The notes under the pieces were generated by a model. The model was not told where the DNA came from. It made no database searches and saw nothing but the letters and a program-made list of their open reading frames with translations. From the NCBI GenBank assembly GCA_963664395.2, contig OY761159.2, forward strand, positions 2,624,001 to 2,688,000: 64,000 nt of DNA, read 5' to 3'. The stretch comes from Candidatus Binatia bacterium. Lineage in GTDB: Bacteria; Desulfobacterota; Binatia; Bin18. Made by a program: the position numbers and the translations under genes. Of the stretch, positions 29,781-39,450 are shown piece by piece. The stretch's first letter is position 1. Every line of letters starts with the position of its first letter.

Positions 29781-30575
29781 ATGGGACAACTGGAAAACAA
29801 AGTCGCTCTTATTACCGGCTCCGGGCGGGGTCAGGGCTTGGTGGCCGCCCGCCTCTTTGCCGCAGAAGGTGCAAAAGTCGTTATCAACGACCTGGACGCG
29901 CAGTCGGTTGATGCCGCAGTTACCTCCATCAAGAAGGCTGGTGGCGAAGCCGTTGGAGCAGTGGGTGATGTGTCGAAAGCCGCGGACGTGCAAGCTGTTC
30001 TGCAAACCGCCCAGGACGCCTTTGGCGGGTTTGACATCCTGTATAACAACGCCGGGATCGGCTACTCGGCGACACGACGCTTCGGCATTGCCATGAGCGA
30101 TGTGGTCAACTGCACCGAGGACGACTGGCACCGCATTATGGACATCAACGTGGGTGGGATCTTTCTGTTCTGCAAATACGGGATTCCCAAGCTGATTGAA
30201 CGTGGCGGCGGGGTCATTATCAACACGGCCTCCATTGCCGCTCTGCGCGGGGCCCAAGACGCCCATGCGTATACGGCCAGCAAAGGCGCGATTCTTGCCC
30301 TCACCCGCGCGCTGGCCGTTACCTATGGCCCCAAAGGCATCCGCGCCAACACCCTCTGCCCCGGTGTGATCGACACCGAAATGATCCACGACACCTTGAT
30401 TGACAAGTCTGAGGTCAGCGCGCTGCTCGCCCGCAACACGCCGCTGCAACGCAACGGCACGCCCGAGGATGTTGCCGCGGTTGCCTTATTTCTGGCGAGT
30501 GAGCAGTCACGCTTTGTGACCGGTGAAACCTTCGCCGTAGACGGCGGCATTATTCAACATCTCGGTCTGGCCTGA
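29781..30575 (+). CDS. SDR family oxidoreductase
   Basis: TGSGRGQG, NNAG, YTASK, VDGG. Confidence 0.92.
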   Translation: MGQLENKVALITGSGRGQGLVAARLFAAEGAKVVINDLDAQSVDAAVTSIKKAGGEAVGAVGDVSKAADVQAVLQTAQDAFGGFDILYNNAGIGYSATRRFGIAMSDVVNCTEDDWHRIMDINVGGIFLFCKYGIPKLIERGGGVIINTASIAALRGAQDAHAYTASKGAILALTRALAVTYGPKGIRANTLCPGVIDTEMIHDTLIDKSEVSALLARNTPLQRNGTPEDVAAVALFLASEQSRFVTGETFAVDGGIIQHLGLA

Positions 30576-30601
30576 GCGGTCGGCTGAAAAAAGGGAAGCC
30601 T

Positions 30602-31552
30602 ATGGATCAGGAACAACTCGTCACAGTGTTCAAGACCGCGGTGCTGGCGCGGCGCTTTGAGGCCAGGATCGTGGCACTCGCCATGGCCGGCGAACTCCCA
30701 CCGTCGCTGCATGTCGGGGCCGGCCAGGAAGTGGCGCAGATTGCCGCCATCGCAGCGCTCCGTCCTGACGACTATATTCTGTACGGCCACCGTGGCCTTG
30801 CGTATATGGTCGCCCGTGGCGTGCGCCTGGCCGACATGCTGTCCGATTTAGCCGGCAAAGAAGGTGCGACCAGTCGCGGTAAGGGCGGCGTGATGCATGT
30901 CGTGGACGTACAAAAAGGTATTTTGGGTGAGAGTGGGACGTTGGGGGGCAGCTTTGTCGTCTCGGTTGGCGTGGGCATGGCGCTCAAGCGCAAGCAGCCG
31001 GACAAAGTTGTGGCCTACTTCTTTGGTGATGGCACCTCGAATCGCGGTACGTTCCATGAGTCGCTCAACTGGGCCGCGGTCCAAAAACTGCCCTGCATCT
31101 ATTTCTGTGAGAATAACGGCTTTGCGATTTCCATGCCGACCAGTCGCTCGACCGCGGTCGAGAATATCGCGGACCGGGCCGCGGGCTATAACATCCCCGG
31201 CGTGGTGGTTGACGGGAGTGATCCGGTGGCGGTGTACGAAGTCATGGAGCAGGCCGTGGCGCGGGCGCGGGCTGGCCAAGGTCCGACCCTGATTGAAGCA
31301 AAAGTGACGCGGCTGCAGGGGCATTACATCGCCGATCAACAAGAATACCGGACCGATCTCGACAAGGTGGCCGCAAAAGATCCCCTACCAAAACTGCAAC
31401 AGATGCTCCTTGATCGAGACATTCTCACGCAGCCGGCTGTGGATGCCATCGAGGCCGACGCAGACCAGCAGGTTGAAGCAGCTGTAGAAGCAATGCGAGC
31501 GGCTCCGCTGTTGGCCCCGGAAGTCGCTCTTCAAGACGTGTATGCGGAGTGA
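30602..31552 (+). CDS. TPP-dependent 2-oxoacid/acetoin dehydrogenase E1 alpha subunit
   Basis: GQE, HRG, GKGGVMH; TPP motif FGDG...CENN; GPTLIEA..RLQGH. Confidence 0.92.
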   Translation: MDQEQLVTVFKTAVLARRFEARIVALAMAGELPPSLHVGAGQEVAQIAAIAALRPDDYILYGHRGLAYMVARGVRLADMLSDLAGKEGATSRGKGGVMHVVDVQKGILGESGTLGGSFVVSVGVGMALKRKQPDKVVAYFFGDGTSNRGTFHESLNWAAVQKLPCIYFCENNGFAISMPTSRSTAVENIADRAAGYNIPGVVVDGSDPVAVYEVMEQAVARARAGQGPTLIEAKVTRLQGHYIADQQEYRTDLDKVAAKDPLPKLQQMLLDRDILTQPAVDAIEADADQQVEAAVEAMRAAPLLAPEVALQDVYAE

Positions 31553-31575
31553 GCAGCAAAGCGGAGTACACAACC

Positions 31576-32547
31576 ATGCAAACAATGACCTATAGTCAGG
31601 CGATCAATCAGGCCCTGGCCGAAGAGATGCAACGCGATGTGGACGTTATCCTCTATGGCCAGGATGTTGCGGTCTGGGGTGGTATTTTTAACGTCACAGA
31701 CGGGCTGCTTGAAAAATTTGGTCCGGACCGCGTGTTTGATACTCCCATCTCCGAAAGTGTTATGGTCGGCGCCGGAGTTGGGGCGGCTTCGATGGGCCTG
31801 CGCCCGGTGGTGGAACTCCAGTTTGCTGATTTTGTTATCACAGCAGGTGATGAAATTTTCTTTAAGGCCGGCATGTGGCGCTATATGCACGGTGGGGCGC
31901 ATACCATTCCGCTGGTTGTTCGCGCCCCTTCGGGTGGCGCGGGCTTTGGGCCCGAGCACTCTGCCTGTCCCGAAGCCTTTATCATGCACGCGCCCGGCCT
32001 GCTGTGCGCCGTGCCCTCCACGCCGGAAGATGCCAAGGGGCTGCTGAAGCAAGCCATTCGACTGAATAACCCGGTCATCTATTTTGAGCATAAACTGCTG
32101 TACCAAATGCGGGGTGAGGTGCCGGACGGAGAGGTGCTGACGCCTTTTGGGAAAGCGGTAGTCCGGCGCGAGGGCGAAGCGGTGACGATTGTAGCCTGGC
32201 AGGACATGCTGCGGCGTACGCTCACCGCCGCGGAGCGACTGAGCCGGGAAGGGATCGAAGTCGAGATCGTTGACCCGCGCACCTTGAACCCTTTTGATCG
32301 CGAAACTATTGTCGAGTCGGTCAAAAAGACCGGGGCCTGTATTGTAGTAGAAGAAGCCTATCGCACCCTCGGGGTCGGCGCGGAGATTGGGGCCATGCTC
32401 CTGGAGGACGCGCTACCGTATATGGACAAGCCCTTCAAACGCCTGGCTATTCCCGATGTCCCGATTCCCACCAGCCAGCATCTTGTTGATGCCATCGTGC
32501 CCGGTGTGGATGATATTTACCAGGCTGTAAAAGAAATCACTGCCTGA
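31576..32547 (+). CDS. 2-oxoacid/acetoin dehydrogenase E1 beta subunit
   Basis: GQDV, DTPISE, RPVVELQFADF, PEHS, FEHK, DPRTLNP. Confidence 0.92.
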   Translation: MQTMTYSQAINQALAEEMQRDVDVILYGQDVAVWGGIFNVTDGLLEKFGPDRVFDTPISESVMVGAGVGAASMGLRPVVELQFADFVITAGDEIFFKAGMWRYMHGGAHTIPLVVRAPSGGAGFGPEHSACPEAFIMHAPGLLCAVPSTPEDAKGLLKQAIRLNNPVIYFEHKLLYQMRGEVPDGEVLTPFGKAVVRREGEAVTIVAWQDMLRRTLTAAERLSREGIEVEIVDPRTLNPFDRETIVESVKKTGACIVVEEAYRTLGVGAEIGAMLLEDALPYMDKPFKRLAIPDVPIPTSQHLVDAIVPGVDDIYQAVKEITA

Positions 32548-32554
32548 GGTCGGC

Positions 32555-34144
32555 GTGCAAAATATCAAAGTGCTGATGCCCAAACTCGGCCAGGCCATGA
32601 CCGAGGGCACGGTCGTGGCCTGGCACCGTGCCGCGGGCGAACGGATTGAAGCCGGTGAACTGCTCGTGACCGTGGAGACCGACAAGGCCACCTACGACTT
32701 GGAGGCTGCCGCCGGCGGTACGGTCCATATTCTTGTGCAGGCAGGTGAAGAGGTTCCGATTCATACAGTCATCGGTGAAATCGGTGAGGTGCCGGTGCAA
32801 ACAGCGGCGTCAGCGCCTCCCCTACTCACCATCCCGAACGCTCCACCGCAGAAGGGGCCGGGACGAGTGCTCGCCTCACCAAAAGCCAAACGGCTGGCGG
32901 CTGAACATGGAATTGACCTTTCCACACTTATCCCGTCTTCCTCGGATGGCATGATCTCGGCATCTGATGTGGAGCGCGCGGTTGCCAATCAGCAGCCAGC
33001 CGTGTCCGCCTTACCTTCTTCCGCACGGACTGAGCGCGAACGCCGCCCTCTGACCGGCATTCGGAAGGCCTCCGCCCGCCGGGTCCAAGCAGCCTGGCAG
33101 ACCATTCCGCATATTGTCCAGATGATTGATGTCGATGCGAGTGCACTCCGAACAGTGCGTGATAAACTTAAAACAGAAGTCTCAGGGCTGACGCTCAACG
33201 ACTTGATTTTATACGCAGTTGCGCGGGTGCTGGCCGGACTGCCCGATCTCAACGGCACGATCGAGAACGAGGAACTTGTCCTGTATGACGGCGTGGATAT
33301 CGGCTTTGCCGTTGATTCGCCGCGCGGTCTGCTGGTGCCGGTCATCCGTGGGGCGGACTCCCTCTCCATAGCACAACTTGTTACGGAAAGTCAGCGACTC
33401 GTTGAAGCCGCTCGGGCGGGTCAGCTTGGGCCGGACGATATGGGCCATGCCAGTCTGACCGTCTCGAACCTCGGCATGTTCGGCATTCGGGCCGGCACAC
33501 CGGTCATTAATCTTGGTGAGCCGCTTCTTGTCTTTGTGGGCGCGGTTGAAGAGCGGCCGGTCGTGCGGAATGGGCAGATTATCGCCCGTCCCATGCTGAC
33601 GCTCAGCATTGCGTATGACCATAGAGTTGCGGACGGGGTCGCGGCATCTCGTTTGAGTCAGGGTCTCAAAGAGGCGCTGGAGAATCTGGAGTCAGAGCCC
33701 TTCTTGGAAGCCCCCAACCCCCAAGAAGCCCTGGACAAACGGGAAGTCCGTTCGGTGTCTACCGGCGATCGGTATGCCGTTCAGGTGCGTAGTGACGGCC
33801 ATGTCTGGAGCCTTGATGAGCCGGCGAGCGACGGCGGAGAAGATACCGGCCCAGACCCGGTGACTGCCTTTCTCGGAGCGCTCCTGTCGTGCCTGACCAT
33901 TGCCTTCAAAGCCGCTGCTCGTCGTCGCAAGGTTAAAATTGGACGGATTGAAGGGCATGTCAAGGCGACGCCGAAGGGCCATGTGAAAGCAATATCCTTA
34001 ACGCTGGAAGTGTGGAGTTCGGCTTTAGAGCAAGACTTGCAAATCCTCCTCGAACGGGCCACGCGCGGTTGCTATGTTAGTGGGGTGTTGAAGCCGGATA
34101 TCGATTTTGTGGTGGAGTTGGTCAGGCACCCGCCGGCCGCTTAG
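32555..34144 (+). CDS. Dihydrolipoamide acyltransferase E2 fused to a C-terminal OsmC-like domain
   Basis: Lipoyl ETDKA; E3/E1-binding ASPKAKRLAAEHGIDL; catalytic DHRVADG; then DEP..GG.DTGPDP...ALLSC...GCYVS (OsmC fold). Confidence 0.88.
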   Translation: MQNIKVLMPKLGQAMTEGTVVAWHRAAGERIEAGELLVTVETDKATYDLEAAAGGTVHILVQAGEEVPIHTVIGEIGEVPVQTAASAPPLLTIPNAPPQKGPGRVLASPKAKRLAAEHGIDLSTLIPSSSDGMISASDVERAVANQQPAVSALPSSARTERERRPLTGIRKASARRVQAAWQTIPHIVQMIDVDASALRTVRDKLKTEVSGLTLNDLILYAVARVLAGLPDLNGTIENEELVLYDGVDIGFAVDSPRGLLVPVIRGADSLSIAQLVTESQRLVEAARAGQLGPDDMGHASLTVSNLGMFGIRAGTPVINLGEPLLVFVGAVEERPVVRNGQIIARPMLTLSIAYDHRVADGVAASRLSQGLKEALENLESEPFLEAPNPQEALDKREVRSVSTGDRYAVQVRSDGHVWSLDEPASDGGEDTGPDPVTAFLGALLSCLTIAFKAAARRRKVKIGRIEGHVKATPKGHVKAISLTLEVWSSALEQDLQILLERATRGCYVSGVLKPDIDFVVELVRHPPAA

Positions 34145-34204: not shown

Positions 34205-35140
34205 TTATGTTTGCAGTGCGGTTCTCAGCGCTGCCGCGGCTTTTTGTAATGCCTGACCCGCCGGCTCAATGACCTTGGCCATGCCCATAAAGCCGTGGAT
34301 GAGCCCTTCGAAACAGATGTATTCAACCGCGACTCCCGCCTCACTCAGCTTGGTCGCATACGCGGCCCCCTCGTCCCGCAAGGGATCGTATTCCGCGGTG
34401 GCAATAAAGGCCGGTGGCAGGCCGCGGCATTGGTCGGTCGATGCCCGCAGTGGGGAGGCCAGCGGATTTTGTCCATCTGCCTCACTCGCGAGGTAGTGAT
34501 CCCAGAACCACGCCATCATCTCAGTCGTAAGAAAATAGCCTTGCGCATTTTCTGTGTGCGACGGCATGGCAAATGCGTGGCCCGTGACCGGATACATGAG
34601 GAGTTGATACGCGAGAGAAGGCAGGCCACTCTCTTGCGCTTTTAAGGTCACCGCCGCGGCCAGGTTGGCACCGGCACTTTCACCGCCCACCGCAAGCCGA
34701 GCGGCATCTCCGTTCAAGGCCGCGGCGTTTAACGCTACCCAGCGGGCCGCGGCGTAGCAGTCATCGACCGCTGCCGGAAATTTATCTTCCGGCGCGAGTC
34801 GGTAGTCGGCCGAGACAACCATACAGTCAGCAAGATTGGTCAATGCCCGGCAGGACGCATCCACGGTATTAATACTGCCAACCACCCAGCCGCCCCCGTG
34901 AAAATAGACCAGTATGGGAAACGGTCCGTCTCCCTCGGGTGTGTAAATACGGATAGGCTGTTTGCCCGCAACTCCGGGTATCAGCCGGTCTTCGACCGTG
35001 CCGACCTTCTCAGGGTCATCCGTCGCGCCCCGCGCGGCTTCCATAGCCGCGCGCGCTGCTTGGGGCGAAAGATGATGTAAGGGCGGGCCGGCAGCGGCCA
35101 TTTGTTCGAGCGCTTTTGCGACCTGGGGATGGAGCGGCAT
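34205..35140 (-). CDS. HSL-family alpha/beta hydrolase (esterase/lipase)
   Basis: HGGGW, YRLAPE, GESAG, EYDPLRDEG, HGF. Confidence 0.93.
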   Translation of the reverse strand: MPLHPQVAKALEQMAAAGPPLHHLSPQAARAAMEAARGATDDPEKVGTVEDRLIPGVAGKQPIRIYTPEGDGPFPILVYFHGGGWVVGSINTVDASCRALTNLADCMVVSADYRLAPEDKFPAAVDDCYAAARWVALNAAALNGDAARLAVGGESAGANLAAAVTLKAQESGLPSLAYQLLMYPVTGHAFAMPSHTENAQGYFLTTEMMAWFWDHYLASEADGQNPLASPLRASTDQCRGLPPAFIATAEYDPLRDEGAAYATKLSEAGVAVEYICFEGLIHGFMGMAKVIEPAGQALQKAAAALRTALQT

Positions 35141-35167
35141 GGAGTGTTCCTTTCAGTTAAGTTCAAA

Positions 35168-35950
35168 TTATGTCAGAAAGTTTCGCACGAGTTGGACAAA
35201 TTCGGTCGGCTTTTCTAACGGCGGGCAATTCCCGCATTGAGGGATAATTTCTACGCGAGCGTTGGAAAGAGCCTGCTGATACAAAGCGCTGCATTCCAGC
35301 GGAACGATCTGATCCTCCTGCCCCCAGATAATGAGGGTTGGAATAGTAACCCGGCCTAACAGCCCGGGCAGGCTGGGGCTGAACATATACGGCTTCCAGC
35401 AGTAGCGCACCACGGTTTCCTGGTTGCGCGTCTGTATAGCGCGCTCTTCTTTGGAAGGCTTGCGTTGAAACAGTTCTGCATACTCGGAAACCTGCTGTGG
35501 GTCGAAATACGCCAGCTGTCTGGTGCCCTCCTGTCCGTGCAGAAAGATATCAGAGATTTCTCCGTCCCGCGGTTGGATACCGGCCGCATCAATCAGAATG
35601 AGACGCTCAAGCGTGCTCGGCGACATGGCCGCCATTTCGGCTGCCAGCCAGCCGCCGATAAAATGGCCGGCCAAAGTAACCTGGGTGAGACCTAATCCGT
35701 CCAACAGCCATAAGCTGAATCGCGCCAAATCCGTAAAGGTTTCCAACCAGGGCGGACGTTCCGACTGTCCAAAGCCCGGACAGGTTGGCGCATAGACGGT
35801 GAAGTGCTCGGCTAACTGTTCGTGATACTGGCGCCAACCAAGATTGCCCTCAACGCCGTGCAGCATGACCAGCGGCTTTCCCCGACCGCCTTTCAGATAG
35901 TGAATCCTGGCTCCCCCAACTTCGATATACTGTTCTTCATGTCCTGCCAT
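35168..35950 (-). CDS. Alpha/beta hydrolase fold protein lacking catalytic Ser and His
   Basis: LHG, PGFGQS, GHFIGG (in place of GHSxGG), IWGQEDQIVP, CGNCPPLEKP (in place of GH). Confidence 0.85.
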   Translation of the reverse strand: MAGHEEQYIEVGGARIHYLKGGRGKPLVMLHGVEGNLGWRQYHEQLAEHFTVYAPTCPGFGQSERPPWLETFTDLARFSLWLLDGLGLTQVTLAGHFIGGWLAAEMAAMSPSTLERLILIDAAGIQPRDGEISDIFLHGQEGTRQLAYFDPQQVSEYAELFQRKPSKEERAIQTRNQETVVRYCWKPYMFSPSLPGLLGRVTIPTLIIWGQEDQIVPLECSALYQQALSNARVEIIPQCGNCPPLEKPTEFVQLVRNFLT

Positions 35951-35969
35951 TGTCGTATCTCTCTGTGTC

Positions 35970-37190
35970 CTATGGCGTGTGTTCAAAGGGTCCGGGCAGC
36001 CCCAGTTCTTTTCCCATTTCCCGTACTGCCGGGAGCACATCATGTTCCATGAGGGCTAAACAGCGCATCGTGTCCTCATGCCCGATGGTGCCGTCATTTG
36101 TCCAGACGCCAAGAATCCCGGGGCGGACAACGCTGAGTACTTCCCGTAATTTCCTGACTACGGTGTCCGGATTGCCAACAATAACCCGGTTGCTTTCCAC
36201 AACCTTTTCCCAGCCCGCGGAATCAACTCCACCGTAGAGGGGATCAGGCCGGAGTGAATAGCGCCGGTACTGGTCTACAATGCGCTTGGCGCCTTCACGT
36301 GAGTTATAGCCCGGAGGAGCCATGAAGTCTCCCGGGAGCGGCACGCGGCCTACACCGGCATTGCCAATCAGAAAGCCTTTCCCAACGTCGTAGGCTTTTT
36401 CATCCGTGTCCTGGACGTGGACGCGGACGAGATAGCCGAAGTTTTGTGGTCCGGGCTCATAGCCGACTTGTTTCGCGGCTTCGGTATAAATTGTGGTCAG
36501 GTCCAAAGTGACCTGTGGGTCGGTTTCCAGGTAAATATAGGGATAGTGGTGGTGGGCACACCAGATAAGCGTCTCCGGACTGCCAATGCCCGGAATCCAA
36601 ATGGGCGGATGTGGCTGCTGAAGCGGACGTTCAAATGGATTGACCACCCGAAACTGATAATGTTTGCCTTCCCAGCGCCACGGCCCTGGTGTTGTCCAGG
36701 TTTTGATAATCAGGTCGTGTGCCTCTTCAAAGCGCTCGCGGTTATACACCGGGTTGGTGTTCGTAGCCCAGCTCTCAATGCCCGTCCCACGCACAAAGCC
36801 GGACACCAGTCGCCCCCGAGAGATCATATCGATTTCTGCCAGCTCCTCGGCCAGACGAAGAGGATTATCGAAAATCGGGAGTGGATTGCCGAGTAGAACG
36901 ATCTTCGCCCGCTTGGTGGTTCGGGCCAGAATCGCGGCTTCGAGATTCATGGCCGCGCCCATGCACGTCGGGGTATTGTGATGCTCATTCAGCATCAGGC
37001 CGTCGAAGCCAACCGCTTCAGCATACTCGTACTCGTCGAGATAGGTATTATACAGGTCCGCACCCAGGGTGGGATTGAAATGTGAATTTGGAAACGTCAG
37101 GCGAACCGCGCTCCGAAAGCTCTGGCGCACGTCCTCTTCCGAGTAATCCACATAGGCCCGTTCAGTAAAACGCATGAGAAACATACCCAT
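35970..37190 (-). CDS. LLM class flavin-dependent oxidoreductase
   Basis: GFDGLMLNEHH, PLRLAEELAEIDMISRGRL, PLQQPHPPIW. Confidence 0.92.
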   Translation of the reverse strand: MGMFLMRFTERAYVDYSEEDVRQSFRSAVRLTFPNSHFNPTLGADLYNTYLDEYEYAEAVGFDGLMLNEHHNTPTCMGAAMNLEAAILARTTKRAKIVLLGNPLPIFDNPLRLAEELAEIDMISRGRLVSGFVRGTGIESWATNTNPVYNRERFEEAHDLIIKTWTTPGPWRWEGKHYQFRVVNPFERPLQQPHPPIWIPGIGSPETLIWCAHHHYPYIYLETDPQVTLDLTTIYTEAAKQVGYEPGPQNFGYLVRVHVQDTDEKAYDVGKGFLIGNAGVGRVPLPGDFMAPPGYNSREGAKRIVDQYRRYSLRPDPLYGGVDSAGWEKVVESNRVIVGNPDTVVRKLREVLSVVRPGILGVWTNDGTIGHEDTMRCLALMEHDVLPAVREMGKELGLPGPFEHTP

Positions 37191-37311
37191 GCCCCCCCTT
37201 TCTTCACCCGGACACTATCGTGTCTTGTATAACAGGATCAAGAGAAAGAGAGGAGACAGCTTGACTCTTGTCGGCAAGCCGCGTACGGGTAGCCACAGAG
37301 GAGGGCTGACT

Positions 37312-37728
37312 ATGGCAAAGATGTACGCCAAGAATACGATTTCTTATGAGTCCGCAGCAAAAATGGTCGCCGCCGCCATCGCCAAAGCAGAAGAGCTGGG
37401 CTGCAAACAGAACGTCGCAGTGGTGGATGACGGCGGTAACCTTAAAGCTTTTGGCCGCATGGACGGTGCCGCACTTCTTGGTGTGGAAGGCTGTCAACGC
37501 AAGGCGTTTACCGCGTTGTTTGGGGTGGGGACAAAAGACCTCTACAACGCGATCAAAGACGACCAGTCCTTAGTTGTCGGTTTGTCCCATTTTTCTCGGG
37601 CCACCATGGTCGGTGGTGGGCTGCCGATTATATCCGACGGGGAGATCCTCGGTGGGATCGGCGTTGGCGGCGGAACGGTCGATGAAGACGTCGCCTGCTC
37701 ACAAGCCGGGCTGGACGCGCTCACCTAG
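37312..37728 (+). CDS. GlcG/HbpS family heme-binding protein
   Basis: VAVVDDGGNL..F.RMDGA, KAFTA, GGGLPI..GEILGGIGVGGGT..ED; RBS GAGGAGG. Confidence 0.9.
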   Translation: MAKMYAKNTISYESAAKMVAAAIAKAEELGCKQNVAVVDDGGNLKAFGRMDGAALLGVEGCQRKAFTALFGVGTKDLYNAIKDDQSLVVGLSHFSRATMVGGGLPIISDGEILGGIGVGGGTVDEDVACSQAGLDALT

Positions 37729-38120
37729 ATCGGGCGCGGCACCCGTGGGACGGGGCGTTGTGACCCACCCGGCGGCTGGGTCTTTTGGGAAGTCTCTTCC
37801 CCATCGCCCGCCCGGAGTTGGTCCCGGCTACAGAGCCCCTTTTCGATCAAGACCTTTTCAAACGAGGCCAGCCAGTGTTCGTAATAGCCGGGCAAGGAGG
37901 CGTCGGGAGCGTCCGCCCGAGCTTGATCGGTAGCCCCGATTTCCGTAATCAAGTGGTCGCGAAATTCGTCCCACTGAAAGTGGCCCTGTTCACATAGGGC
38001 CACGGCCAAGGCAAAGGCGCGCCTTTCCCAGGCGGCGTGGAAGACCAGCTCGCCACTTTTCCGCGGAAGGGCAGAGTCCCCTTCCATATTTGAGATCTTT
38101 CGATTTGGCGTATGTTTCAT
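37725..38120 (-). CDS. Nitrile hydratase accessory/activator protein (P14K/NhhG-like)
   Basis: [25 protein letters not shown]...W..F...[11 protein letters not shown]; directly downstream of the alpha subunit. Confidence 0.85.
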
Positions 38121-38779
38121 GCTGCTGGGGGTTGGACCTTGGCTACGCCGATCATGGAGTCGCGGCTGACCAGCACGGTGAGTTCCTCTTCACTCATGCC
38201 CTCGGTTCCGGCGGGACGTTCGGGCAAGACCATATAGCGGATTTCCGCGCTACTATCCCAGACCTTCACCGCAGTTGACTCGTCAAGTTCAAGACCAAAA
38301 TCACGCAGTACGCCGCGTGGGTCCACAACGGAACGGGAACGATACGCCGCGTCCTTAAACCAGGCGGGTGGGAGTCCGAGAACCGGCCACGGATAGCAGG
38401 AGCACAAAGTACACACGACCATATGGTGGATGTCGGGTGTGTTCTCAACCACCACCATGTGCTCGCCTTGGAGGCCGCTAAAACCGAGTTCACCAATGGC
38501 TGCGGTGGCGTCTTTGAGTAAGCGCTTTTTATACGCAGGATCGACCCAGGCCCGGGCCACAACTCTGGCCCCATTCGTCGGCCCGAGGTCATTTTCATAG
38601 GTCTCGACCAATTTATCGAGAGTTTCTGAAGAGACCAGACCCTTGGCAACCAGTAAGGACTCTAACGCCTGCACCCGTTTCTCCAGGGCTGCGGTCTGCT
38701 CCGGGGTGGCGTGTTTTTCCAAGTACGGATTGGGCGGTGCATCGTGTGCGCTATGACCATGAGAATGATCGTTGCTCAT
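38117..38779 (-). CDS. nthA: Cobalt-type nitrile hydratase alpha subunit
   Basis: [10 protein letters not shown] metal motif (Thr/Tyr indicate Co-type); [12 protein letters not shown]. Confidence 0.96.
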
Positions 38780-38790
38780 GACTCCTCTCC

Positions 38791-39450
38791 TTACGCTGGG
38801 TCGAGATAATCTTCCCACAGGTCGATATACAGATTGTCTGTCGTGGCCGTGTCCGGGCCCCAGAGTTCCTGGGCGCTAAAGCAGACCGAATACAGTGGCT
38901 GTGGCTGTTCACCCCGGCCGTGGGCATTGGTATCCGGGTAGACAAAGGTGCCGTGGACTTGATCGATGACCCCGTTTTTTCCGCGGACATAACGCGGCAG
39001 CCGTGTGTGCCCGGTTGGATTGAGGTTGCGCGCCTGGACTTTGTCGCCAACTGAGAAACGAGGGGTCAGGCGGCCTTCTGCCCGATTGCACGGAGCCCCT
39101 CCTTTCACAACCGCCGGGACTGCTTCGGGTGGAAGCGGACCTTCTGCCCGCTTGCTTGTTTCTGTGGCAACCCCTGTTGCCAGTTCTTCCGGGGTGAGGA
39201 CACCTTTTTCCACGGCGAGAGTTTCCAGTGCGGCCAGCCAGTGCTCATAATAGGTTGAGGAGAGATAATGGGCGGGGTCCATGCGTTCGATTGCATGTCG
39301 AAAGCCATCGAGCGTATCGAGTTGGCCCATGCCGAGCATGGTCATCGCAAACACTCGCTTTTCCCACTCGGCGTGGAAAATCGGCTCATTTTCTTCCGGC
39401 TTGACCGGACCATAACAGGTCATGCCACCCATGTCATGCACGCCATTCAT
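38791..39450 (-). CDS. nthB: Nitrile hydratase beta subunit
   Basis: [43 protein letters not shown]. Confidence 0.96.

Follow-up and report, generated by a model that had tools for sequence, protein, structure and literature searches.

We describe a protein encoded in a 64,000-nucleotide stretch of a Candidatus Binatia bacterium genome (GenBank assembly GCA_963664395.2, contig OY761159.2, positions 2,624,001–2,688,000 of the forward strand; hereafter the window) in which the E2 acyltransferase of a 2-oxoacid dehydrogenase-type complex is joined to a C-terminal OsmC-fold domain with two cysteines, Cys446 and Cys506. The fused gene closes an operon (29781–34144, + strand) that also encodes a short-chain dehydrogenase/reductase (SDR) and the alpha and beta subunits of E1. 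Our best reading is that the C-terminal domain (hereafter the tail) is a thiol redox module that depends on the lipoyl arm, the reductant to which it is tethered; it would most likely act as a hydroperoxide reductase or as a relay. Databases name such fused proteins merely '2-oxo acid dehydrogenase subunit E2'.

By sequence, the protein appears to be a genuine E2: it has a lipoyl domain with the Lys motif, an E3/E1-binding domain and a DHRxxDG core, its operon holds the E1 genes, and the genome encodes dihydrolipoamide dehydrogenase (Lpd, the E3 component). An earlier reading of the window, made from the sequence alone, had proposed that an E2 with intact lipoyl Lys (ETDKA) and catalytic (DHRVADG) motifs runs on in frame into an OsmC/Ohr-fold domain, and our results bear this out. 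These two motifs and the tail motifs GPDPVT (residues 432–437), ALLSC (Cys446) and RGCYVS (Cys506) are all present in the translation, and the Pfam check that it had suggested recovered all four domains (PF00364, PF02817, PF00198 and PF02566; Table 1). PF02566 matched residues 428–519 (1.9e-13; 51.1 bits, cut-off 27.5), and an AlphaFold2 model of residues 385–529 (mean predicted local distance difference test score, pLDDT, 96.5) agrees with it. The best Foldseek matches of that model in the PDB were all OsmC-family proteins: Ta0195 (2onf), MPN625 (1lql), TM0919 (1vla), AQ1549 (2egt) and YhfA (1ml8), with E-values of about 1e-9 to 1e-8 and template modelling (TM) scores of 0.68–0.84. Ohr and OsmC proper matched less well (TM about 0.57–0.69). 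Cys446 and Cys506 are 60 residues apart; two conserved cysteines about 60 residues apart are the superfamily hallmark according to PMC5384416. Profile and predicted fold together place the tail in the OsmC/Ohr superfamily.

Turning to how the tail is attached, solved E2 chains stop 5–8 residues past the position of residue 377/378, and the tail sets in within about 5–10 residues of the canonical E2 C-terminus. A model of residues 150–529, built from 54 of 136 fused sequences hand-picked for spread, had a mean pLDDT of 90.3, with both domains confident and only residues 385–388 below 50; its predicted TM score (pTM) was 0.61. Because of the low pLDDT at residues 385–388 and the modest pTM, we describe the junction as a hinge with no fixed domain orientation. 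The spacing from the DHR motif to the tail is 28 residues in the window protein and 17–72 among relatives (median 34.5), leaving out P0158, for which a second DHR motif produced an artefactual value of −41.

The tail is predicted to form a homodimer of the intertwined OsmC type. Three runs gave interface scores (ipSAE, interaction prediction score from aligned errors) of 0.93, 0.93 and 0.92, against 0.00 for the best control; among solved structures, 20 of 30 homo-pairs and 1 of 23 single chains attain that mark, and the score may reflect likeness to the OsmC dimers that have been solved. The runs shared at least 97% of contacts at a pLDDT of 91, and the interface includes model residues 48–62 and 122–124, hence both cysteines. 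In E2 cores the C-termini meet at inter-trimer two-fold contacts. Tail dimers could form between neighbouring E2 trimers.

The fusion is widely conserved among its relatives. We found 176 E2-sized relatives with a tail region, and the counts given here rest on the 120 that were listed. PF00198 and PF02566 were both present in all 120, and all four domains in 114. Setting aside the short fragments P0021, P0064, P0087, P0088 and P0095 leaves 115 full-length relatives of at least 480 residues. Every one of these keeps the lipoyl Lys motif, the DHR motif, Cys446 and Cys506, and the E3/E1-binding domain (PF02817) is retained in 114 of the 115 in precomputed Pfam assignments. Searching exhaustively and without a profile, with only the tail as query, we obtained 555 matches at E≤1e-3; among the best 150, 21 proteins of at least 480 residues carried it as a C-terminal domain, comprising 20 E2s and P0188. 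Both cysteines were present in all 20 divergent fused E2 representatives, drawn from Binatia and haloarchaea, and were invariant in the 135 fused E2 sequences examined and in our alignments A1, A3 and A6; the DHR motif was invariant in A6. The homolog survey called for by the sequence-only reading thus came out in favour of both the fusion and its two cysteines.

Named fused members comprise Candidatus Binatia metagenome-assembled genomes and the haloarchaea Halolamina, Halorubrum sp. 48-1-W, Halovalidus salilacus and Haloarcula ordinaria. On this sequence record, the E2–OsmC fusion is old, extends over Bacteria and Archaea and is no product of assembly. The nearest relatives of the tail are mainly E2-fused or small stand-alone proteins, and a quick tree of 110 tails placed 25 of 27 fused tails in two clades; the tree was used solely for the clustering of fused rows, as the rows marked as alone included Met-starting fragments of E2s (e.g., P0129 and P0154). 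A metagenome scan with a three-row tail alignment yielded seven loci. One of them (L030, 69% identity) keeps the tail together with the convergent esterase/hydrolase genes found in the window; in three (L032–L034) nothing upstream of the tail matched E2, L033 being a stand-alone open reading frame (ORF) of 162 residues; and the remaining three (L031, L035 and L036) are short fragments. A match on a Natrinema caseinilyticum plasmid covering 98% of a haloarchaeal fusion query was discarded, as Pfam found no OsmC domain in it.

The relatives of the window locus itself all belong to Candidatus Binatia records, one of them labelled Enterobacteriaceae. This record, L017 (CAZBUD010000031.1, titled 'uncultured Enterobacteriaceae bacterium'), contains a whole Binatia-type locus with 73–93% protein identity, and its bin is probably mislabelled or mis-binned. 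At another Candidatus Binatia locus (L015, OZ252051.1, 8433–9414), the SDR, E1 alpha and E1 beta genes and residues 1–199 of E2 are deleted, and the leftover half-core and OsmC tail are separated by a frameshift, with an in-frame stop in the tail. This locus appears to be a decaying operon remnant, and its pattern of loss, a single case, fits weakly with functional coupling of core and tail. Other architectures were also seen. Two shorter proteins, P0161 (247 residues, Candidatus Binataceae) and P0170 (258 residues), join a lipoyl-like domain straight to an OsmC-like domain, with no peripheral subunit-binding domain (PSBD) and no catalytic core; in P0161 the lipoyl Lys position is apparently replaced (ETGEA). 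P0188 (586 residues) has an OsmC-like C-terminal domain behind an N-terminus that looks, by eye, like an alpha/beta-hydrolase. The best PDB sequence match of the tail (E 4.6e-5) was chain A of 9wo1 (400 residues), which has an OsmC-like domain at 275–334.

The conservation of the fusion makes cooperation between lipoyl arm and two-Cys domain a reasonable inference. We propose that the protein forms a normal lipoylated core subunit of a pyruvate dehydrogenase (PDH)/acetoin-type complex, bearing the OsmC-fold domain on a short, flexible C-terminal hinge. The tail would dimerize as OsmC proteins do, placing Cys446 and Cys506 at the interface. An oxidant would convert the Cys446/Cys506 dithiol to a disulfide; most probably it is an organic hydroperoxide, though a second thiol peroxidase in its disulfide form is possible. 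A dihydrolipoyl arm belonging to that E2 assembly would then reduce the tail disulfide. The arm in turn would be recharged either as E1 oxidizes substrate or by Lpd run backwards from NADH, the Lpd coming from a gene at another locus and docking on the binding domain that E2 has kept. The fusion would thus be a hard-wired form of the known chain from Lpd through lipoyl-E2 to an Ohr/OsmC peroxidase. Ohr and OsmC disulfides are described as reduced by lipoylated proteins with Lpd in PMC8945050 and PMC5384416, and a preprint on Hyphomicrobium proposes a GcvH-like lipoyl protein as OsmC donor (bioRxiv 10.64898/2026.10.01.755906). We lean somewhat towards the specific form of this proposal, in which the cysteines cycle, a dihydrolipoyl arm within the E2 assembly reduces them and an organic hydroperoxide is the likeliest oxidant; that electrons pass from lipoyl to tail, which oxidant is used and which way the flux runs are all inferred.

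The arrangement in Haloarcula ordinaria is consistent with such a chain. On plasmid NZ_CP119790.1 (L023:7471–11267), genes for an OsmC protein (141 residues), an E2–OsmC fusion (583 residues) and lpdA lie in a row. The fusion has all four domains, the lipoyl Lys, the DHR motif and both cysteines, and the upstream OsmC has a Glu ten residues ahead of its first Cys, as Glu51 stands to Cys61 in Xylella fastidiosa Ohr (XfOhr). No E1 gene was found within 8 kb of this fusion, the nearest E1 alpha lying about 30 kb off. This is the sole fused locus beyond the Binatia with a readable gene neighbourhood. By its gene content, the cluster is a candidate for a dedicated chain from NADH through Lpd and lipoyl to OsmC, the reverse of an E3-less design.

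Several observations weigh against the mechanism proposed here. In the alignment to XfOhr (1zb8), catalytic Glu51 corresponds to Val436 and Arg19 to Arg406; of the 115 full-length relatives, 113 have Val and 2 have Leu where Ohr has Glu51, and at the Arg19 position 51 have Gly, 36 Arg, 17 Gln and 11 other residues. Against the NCBIfam Ohr model TIGR03561 the tail scored 17–21 bits (cut-off 88.85), and it did not match the OsmC peroxiredoxin model TIGR03562 at E≤0.01. Additionally, in the ORF and Pfam assignments the operon showed neither a regulator of the OhrR/OxyR type nor any other gene linked to peroxide. The adjacency of lpdA was seen at one haloarchaeal locus, and a tail-only tblastn search of plasmids gave no further fused gene. 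The distribution is also patchy: of 301 genomes sampled from the phylum, 3 matched the tail at E≤1e-8, the genome of the window included, and the match was to a fused protein in that genome only, the other two being short non-fused paralogues. Finally, Trichomonas vaginalis OsmC (TvOsmC), which lacks the Arg/Glu pair, was inactive in one laboratory according to PMC5384416, and a 2022 review states that the properties and physiological roles of the Arg/Glu-less YhfA branch are still to be investigated (PMC8945050).

The residue data also suggest which kind of OsmC domain the tail represents. The sequence-only reading had noted that the Glu usually found after the P-x-P motif is replaced by Thr; this was right in substance as to the missing Glu, but the residue at the Glu51 position is Val436, with Thr437 one further along. 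The beta3–alpha1 loop of the tail, which reads DEPxxxGGxDxGPxP, contains no conserved Arg. With the Ohr Glu replaced, the Ohr Arg not conserved among relatives and a score short of the TIGR03561 cut-off, the tail falls, by sequence, outside the Ohr subfamily; the same holds for the OsmC subfamily of peroxiredoxins, given the TIGR03562 result and the absence of conserved Arg and Glu. Sequence comparison instead points to a third class, the YhfA or 'Ohr-like' proteins, a loose grouping with no curated family that is defined by both cysteines without the Arg/Glu pair (PMC5384416 and PMC8945050, each in part). In XfOhr, the R19A and E51A variants are reported to have residual activity only (PMC5962072, in part). 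Because the pair is absent, the classical high-rate Ohr mechanism is not to be assumed for the tail. The fused clade has conserved polar residues of its own: among the 20 divergent representatives, Asp421 is found in all, Glu422 in 18, Arg396 in 17 and Arg504 in 16. Of these, Arg396 lies in an N-terminal segment that packs against the Cys446 helix of the partner in the predicted dimer, and it is a candidate catalytic substitute.

Alternatively, the tail may be no peroxidase but an AhpD-like dithiol–disulfide shuttle, handing electrons from the lipoyl group onward to separate thiol peroxidases, or to some disulfide or persulfide substrate. The absence of the Ohr Glu and Arg alongside invariant cysteines favours such a relay, as does the separate Glu-bearing OsmC encoded immediately upstream of E2–OsmC and lpdA in Haloarcula. 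The genome of the window has three further OsmC-family genes, and it encodes a stand-alone paralogue of the tail (142 residues, contig 1, 603952–604308, − strand; 39% identity, both cysteines, PDPVT motif). The gene for this paralogue follows, on its downstream side, a glyoxalase/VOC gene and a fusion of DsbD_TM with a TlpA-like thioredoxin, a thiol–disulfide exchange context. C. glutamicum OsmC, moreover, is described in part of PMC8945050 as regenerated via AhpD, a lipoyl-dependent relay. Against this, the conserved Arg396, Asp421, Glu422 and Arg504 could make an alternative catalytic site, and the Binatia operon holds no gene for a partner peroxidase. We know of no OsmC-fold protein that acts purely as a relay, and we regard this explanation as unlikely, if still worth serious consideration. 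A structural or regulatory role is far less probable in our estimation. Here the dimerizing tail would cap or cross-link E2 trimers at two-fold interfaces, setting core size or sensing redox state with little turnover. Its onset so near the canonical E2 C-terminus would suit this, as would the predicted dimer, with the proviso that solved OsmC dimers may explain its score, and work by Izard in 1999 and Bruch in 2021 is said to show that E2 C-termini mediate trimer–trimer contacts. A scaffold, however, would not need two cysteines kept in 135 of 135 fused E2s, a linker varying by about 50 residues argues against fixed geometry, and the same clade includes stand-alone members. Finally, the wrong joining of two adjacent genes, for which no point speaks, is scarcely credible: the frame is continuous in the window, and the fusion recurs in the 115 full-length relatives, on many contigs and in haloarchaeal isolate genomes, which also disposes of the one-off assembly artefact that the sequence-only reading had allowed for.

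The question of whether the tail replaces E3 was raised by the same reading, which suggested that the tail re-oxidizes the lipoyl arm in cis, so that turnover proceeds without NAD+ and electrons pass to a peroxide or disulfide sink. A tail disulfide could, in chemical terms, oxidize dihydrolipoyl, judging from the Ohr chemistry described in part of PMC5384416. The absence of lpd that it had expected across homologs was found in one setting and not in another: lpd is missing from the operon and, over about 9 kb, from the surroundings of all seven related Binatia loci, but lpdA adjoins the fused gene in Haloarcula ordinaria. Just one true lpd was found in the Binatia genome (566 bits, cut-off 408.8), beside another of its three E2 genes; after it in score come a glutathione reductase and a flavoprotein of the PRK06370 type. 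No lpd-family match was found within 100 kb of the fused E2, nor within 100 kb of the other stand-alone E2 at 1.69 Mb. Because one shared E3 is the norm in this genome, with its three E2 genes, the absence of lpd near the Binatia loci carries little weight; sharing of E3 is, from its gene content, this organism's normal arrangement, and an E3-less operon is no signal. The retained E3/E1-binding domain also speaks against replacement. Furthermore, each turnover would consume oxidant stoichiometrically, and because one peroxide or disulfide would be needed per substrate molecule, E3 replacement seems implausible for catabolic flux. We consider it very unlikely. Replacement is thus not supported by the sequence evidence, and the tail would, at least as a rule, supplement E3, with occasional bypass of it possible. 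A bolder form strikes us as improbable. In it, tails would pair over the two-fold axes of the core and serve the complex as an internal oxidase of dihydrolipoyl groups, allowing acyl-CoA to be made without E3 or NAD+ under peroxide or disulfide stress. If true, it would couple carbon catabolism directly to peroxide removal and show what reduces the Arg/Glu-less YhfA/'Ohr-like' proteins as a class and what they do.

The operon otherwise has the composition that had been described for it. The ORFs and Pfam assignments confirm a tightly coupled SDR–E1 alpha–E1 beta–E2 series with no lpd (E3) gene between 29781 and 34144; the ORF list gives intergenic spacings of 26, −4 and 7 nt, the second becoming 23 nt with a later E1 beta start. 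That start, ATG 31576, may be the true one, as alignments of relatives begin only at residues 5–10. The E1 alpha lacks the N-terminal 30–45 residues of solved PDH and branched-chain 2-oxoacid dehydrogenase (BCKDH) alpha chains; its closest solved relatives are human and Geobacillus PDH E1 alpha and a Thermus 2-oxoacid dehydrogenase, and its scores against the PDH E1 alpha models TIGR03182 and TIGR03181 (260.8 and 251.4 bits) are both under the cut-offs. The E1 beta passes the PDH E1 beta subfamily model NF006667 (325.1 bits, cut-off 321). The SDR, which is syntenic in four related loci, passes the glucose-1-dehydrogenase subfamily model NF005559 (239.7 bits, cut-off 215) and falls under the cut-off of the BudC model (221.9 bits, cut-off 270). 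The E2 is not of the AcoC type (NF011457, 68 bits, cut-off 307, matching residues 4–143 only). An assignment of substrate was dropped as undecidable, the E1 alpha, E2, AcoC and BudC models being under their cut-offs and only the generic E1 beta and SDR subfamily models passing; by sequence, the complex can be named no more closely than 'PDH/acetoin-type'.

Table 1. Features of the E2–OsmC operon and its 3' boundary (window positions)
Feature	Position	Strand	Evidence
SDR-family oxidoreductase, operon gene 1	29781–30575	+	PF13561 8.7e-65; ATG 29781 is the start where relatives begin aligning
E1 alpha (thiamine-diphosphate subunit), short 316-residue form	30602–31552	+	PF00676 5.3e-73
E1 beta	31549–32547	+	PF02779 and PF02780; GTG start, 4-nt overlap with E1 alpha
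E2–OsmC fusion gene, 529 residues	32555–34144	+	four Pfam domains
Lipoyl domain, residues 6–76	32570–32782	+	PF00364 1.6e-13
Lipoyl Lys44 (ETDKA)	32684–32686	+	translation
Peripheral-subunit (E3/E1) binding domain, residues 105–140	32867–32974	+	PF02817 1.7e-9, 38.2 bits, cut-off 23.7
E2 catalytic acyltransferase core, residues 160–379	33032–33691	+	PF00198 7.2e-67
Catalytic His356 (DHRVADG)	33620–33622	+	translation
Predicted flexible hinge between E2 core and OsmC-like domain, residues 385–388 (EAPN)	33707–33718	+	pLDDT <50
OsmC-fold two-Cys domain, residues 389–529, YhfA/'Ohr-like' type	33719–34141	+	PF02566, model, Foldseek
Val436 (Ohr Glu51 position)	33860–33862	+	translation, XfOhr alignment
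Cys446	33890–33892	+	translation, XfOhr alignment
Cys506	34070–34072	+	translation, XfOhr alignment
REP-like palindromic hairpin, 9-bp stem, 8-nt loop, directly 3' of E2 stop codon	34151–34176	.	palindrome search
Convergent Abhydrolase_3 esterase/lipase gene, marks operon end	34205–35140	−	PF07859 5.6e-78

Downstream, the operon ends as the sequence-only reading had it, at a repetitive extragenic palindromic (REP)-like element followed by a convergent gene. The palindrome occurs once in the window and in none of the shuffled sequences; at up to one mismatch the 5.04-Mb genome holds four copies, in both loop orientations, against none for the reversed control. It is thus REP-like, but its family is small. 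The convergent block (34205–37190, − strand) encodes the Abhydrolase_3 esterase, an Abhydrolase_1 hydrolase (PF00561) and a luciferase-like monooxygenase (PF00296), and its synteny is kept in L012–L017 and L030. Every related locus of sufficient length shows the block beside E2–OsmC. The monooxygenase is 93–98% identical among related loci, a conservation far above that of E2. Further along, window positions 37174–39450 hold a gene for an HbpS-like protein (+ strand) and then a nitrile hydratase cluster (− strand), with alpha and beta subunits at 38117–38818 and 38791–39450 and a 131-residue ORF at 37725–38120, which we take to be a nitrile hydratase accessory (activator) protein.

Reduction of Ohr and OsmC by lipoyl groups is known only from separate proteins in vitro, and a conserved fusion shared by Bacteria and Archaea adds an independent line of 'Rosetta-stone' evidence for E2 lipoyl arms as the physiological partners. 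It also carries the lipoyl link over to the third, Arg/Glu-less OsmC branch. A dimerizing domain on the E2 C-terminus, an element governing core assembly, is relevant to structural studies of such complexes, and the presence of the fusion in cultured haloarchaea (Haloarcula ordinaria, Halorubrum sp. 48-1-W and Halovalidus salilacus) makes the proposal directly testable. We found no description of an E2–OsmC fusion in the full-text literature searched, supplementary tables lying outside the coverage of that search.

Among known systems, the acoABCL and pdhABCD complexes share with the Binatia operon a heterotetrameric E1, an E2 of lipoyl–PSBD–catalytic layout and an upstream SDR of the butanediol/glucose dehydrogenase type; the Binatia operon, in contrast, lacks E3, and its E2 has an extra C-terminal domain. 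P0188, the apparent alpha/beta-hydrolase–OsmC fusion, and PDB 9wo1 have a related C-terminal OsmC-like domain, but the hydrolase partner in P0188 bears no lipoyl arm. Members of the YhfA/'Ohr-like' subfamily (2onf, 1lql, 1vla, 2egt, 1ml8 and Psyc_0566, 2pn2) likewise have two cysteines and no Arg/Glu pair; they are stand-alone proteins of about 130–150 residues whose function is disputed, whereas the fusion clade is typically E2-fused and carries Arg396, Asp421–Glu422 and Arg504.

Other parallels are found in lipoyl-dependent redox chains. In Mycobacterium tuberculosis, an Lpd–DlaT(E2)–AhpD–AhpC chain was reportedly described by Bryk et al. in 2002; there too the lipoyl arm of a metabolic E2 also supplies electrons, by way of a dithiol protein, to the defence against peroxide, but AhpD is a separate protein of the CMD-family fold, whereas the acceptor in E2–OsmC is a fused OsmC fold. 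In Trichomonas vaginalis, Nyvltova et al. reportedly studied OsmC together with the H-protein and L-protein in 2016. That protein is likewise OsmC-like and Arg/Glu-less, with a lipoyl carrier and dihydrolipoyl dehydrogenase as its proposed reductant; it differs in that the components are separate, the carrier is GcvH rather than E2, and the activity was not reproduced in the work described in part of PMC5384416. A third such system is the Ohr of Xylella fastidiosa, which is reduced by Lpd together with lipoylated SucB/PDHB (Cussiol et al. 2010, as described in parts of PMC8945050 and PMC5384416). The Binatia protein departs from it in having the OsmC-fold domain fused to E2, in conserving no equivalents of Arg19 and Glu51 and in scoring far under the NCBIfam cut-offs for Ohr and OsmC; the two resemble each other in an OsmC-fold homodimer, predicted for the tail, in two cysteines about 60 residues apart and in a reductant that, as proposed here for the fusion, would be the dihydrolipoyl group of an E2 recharged by Lpd and NADH.

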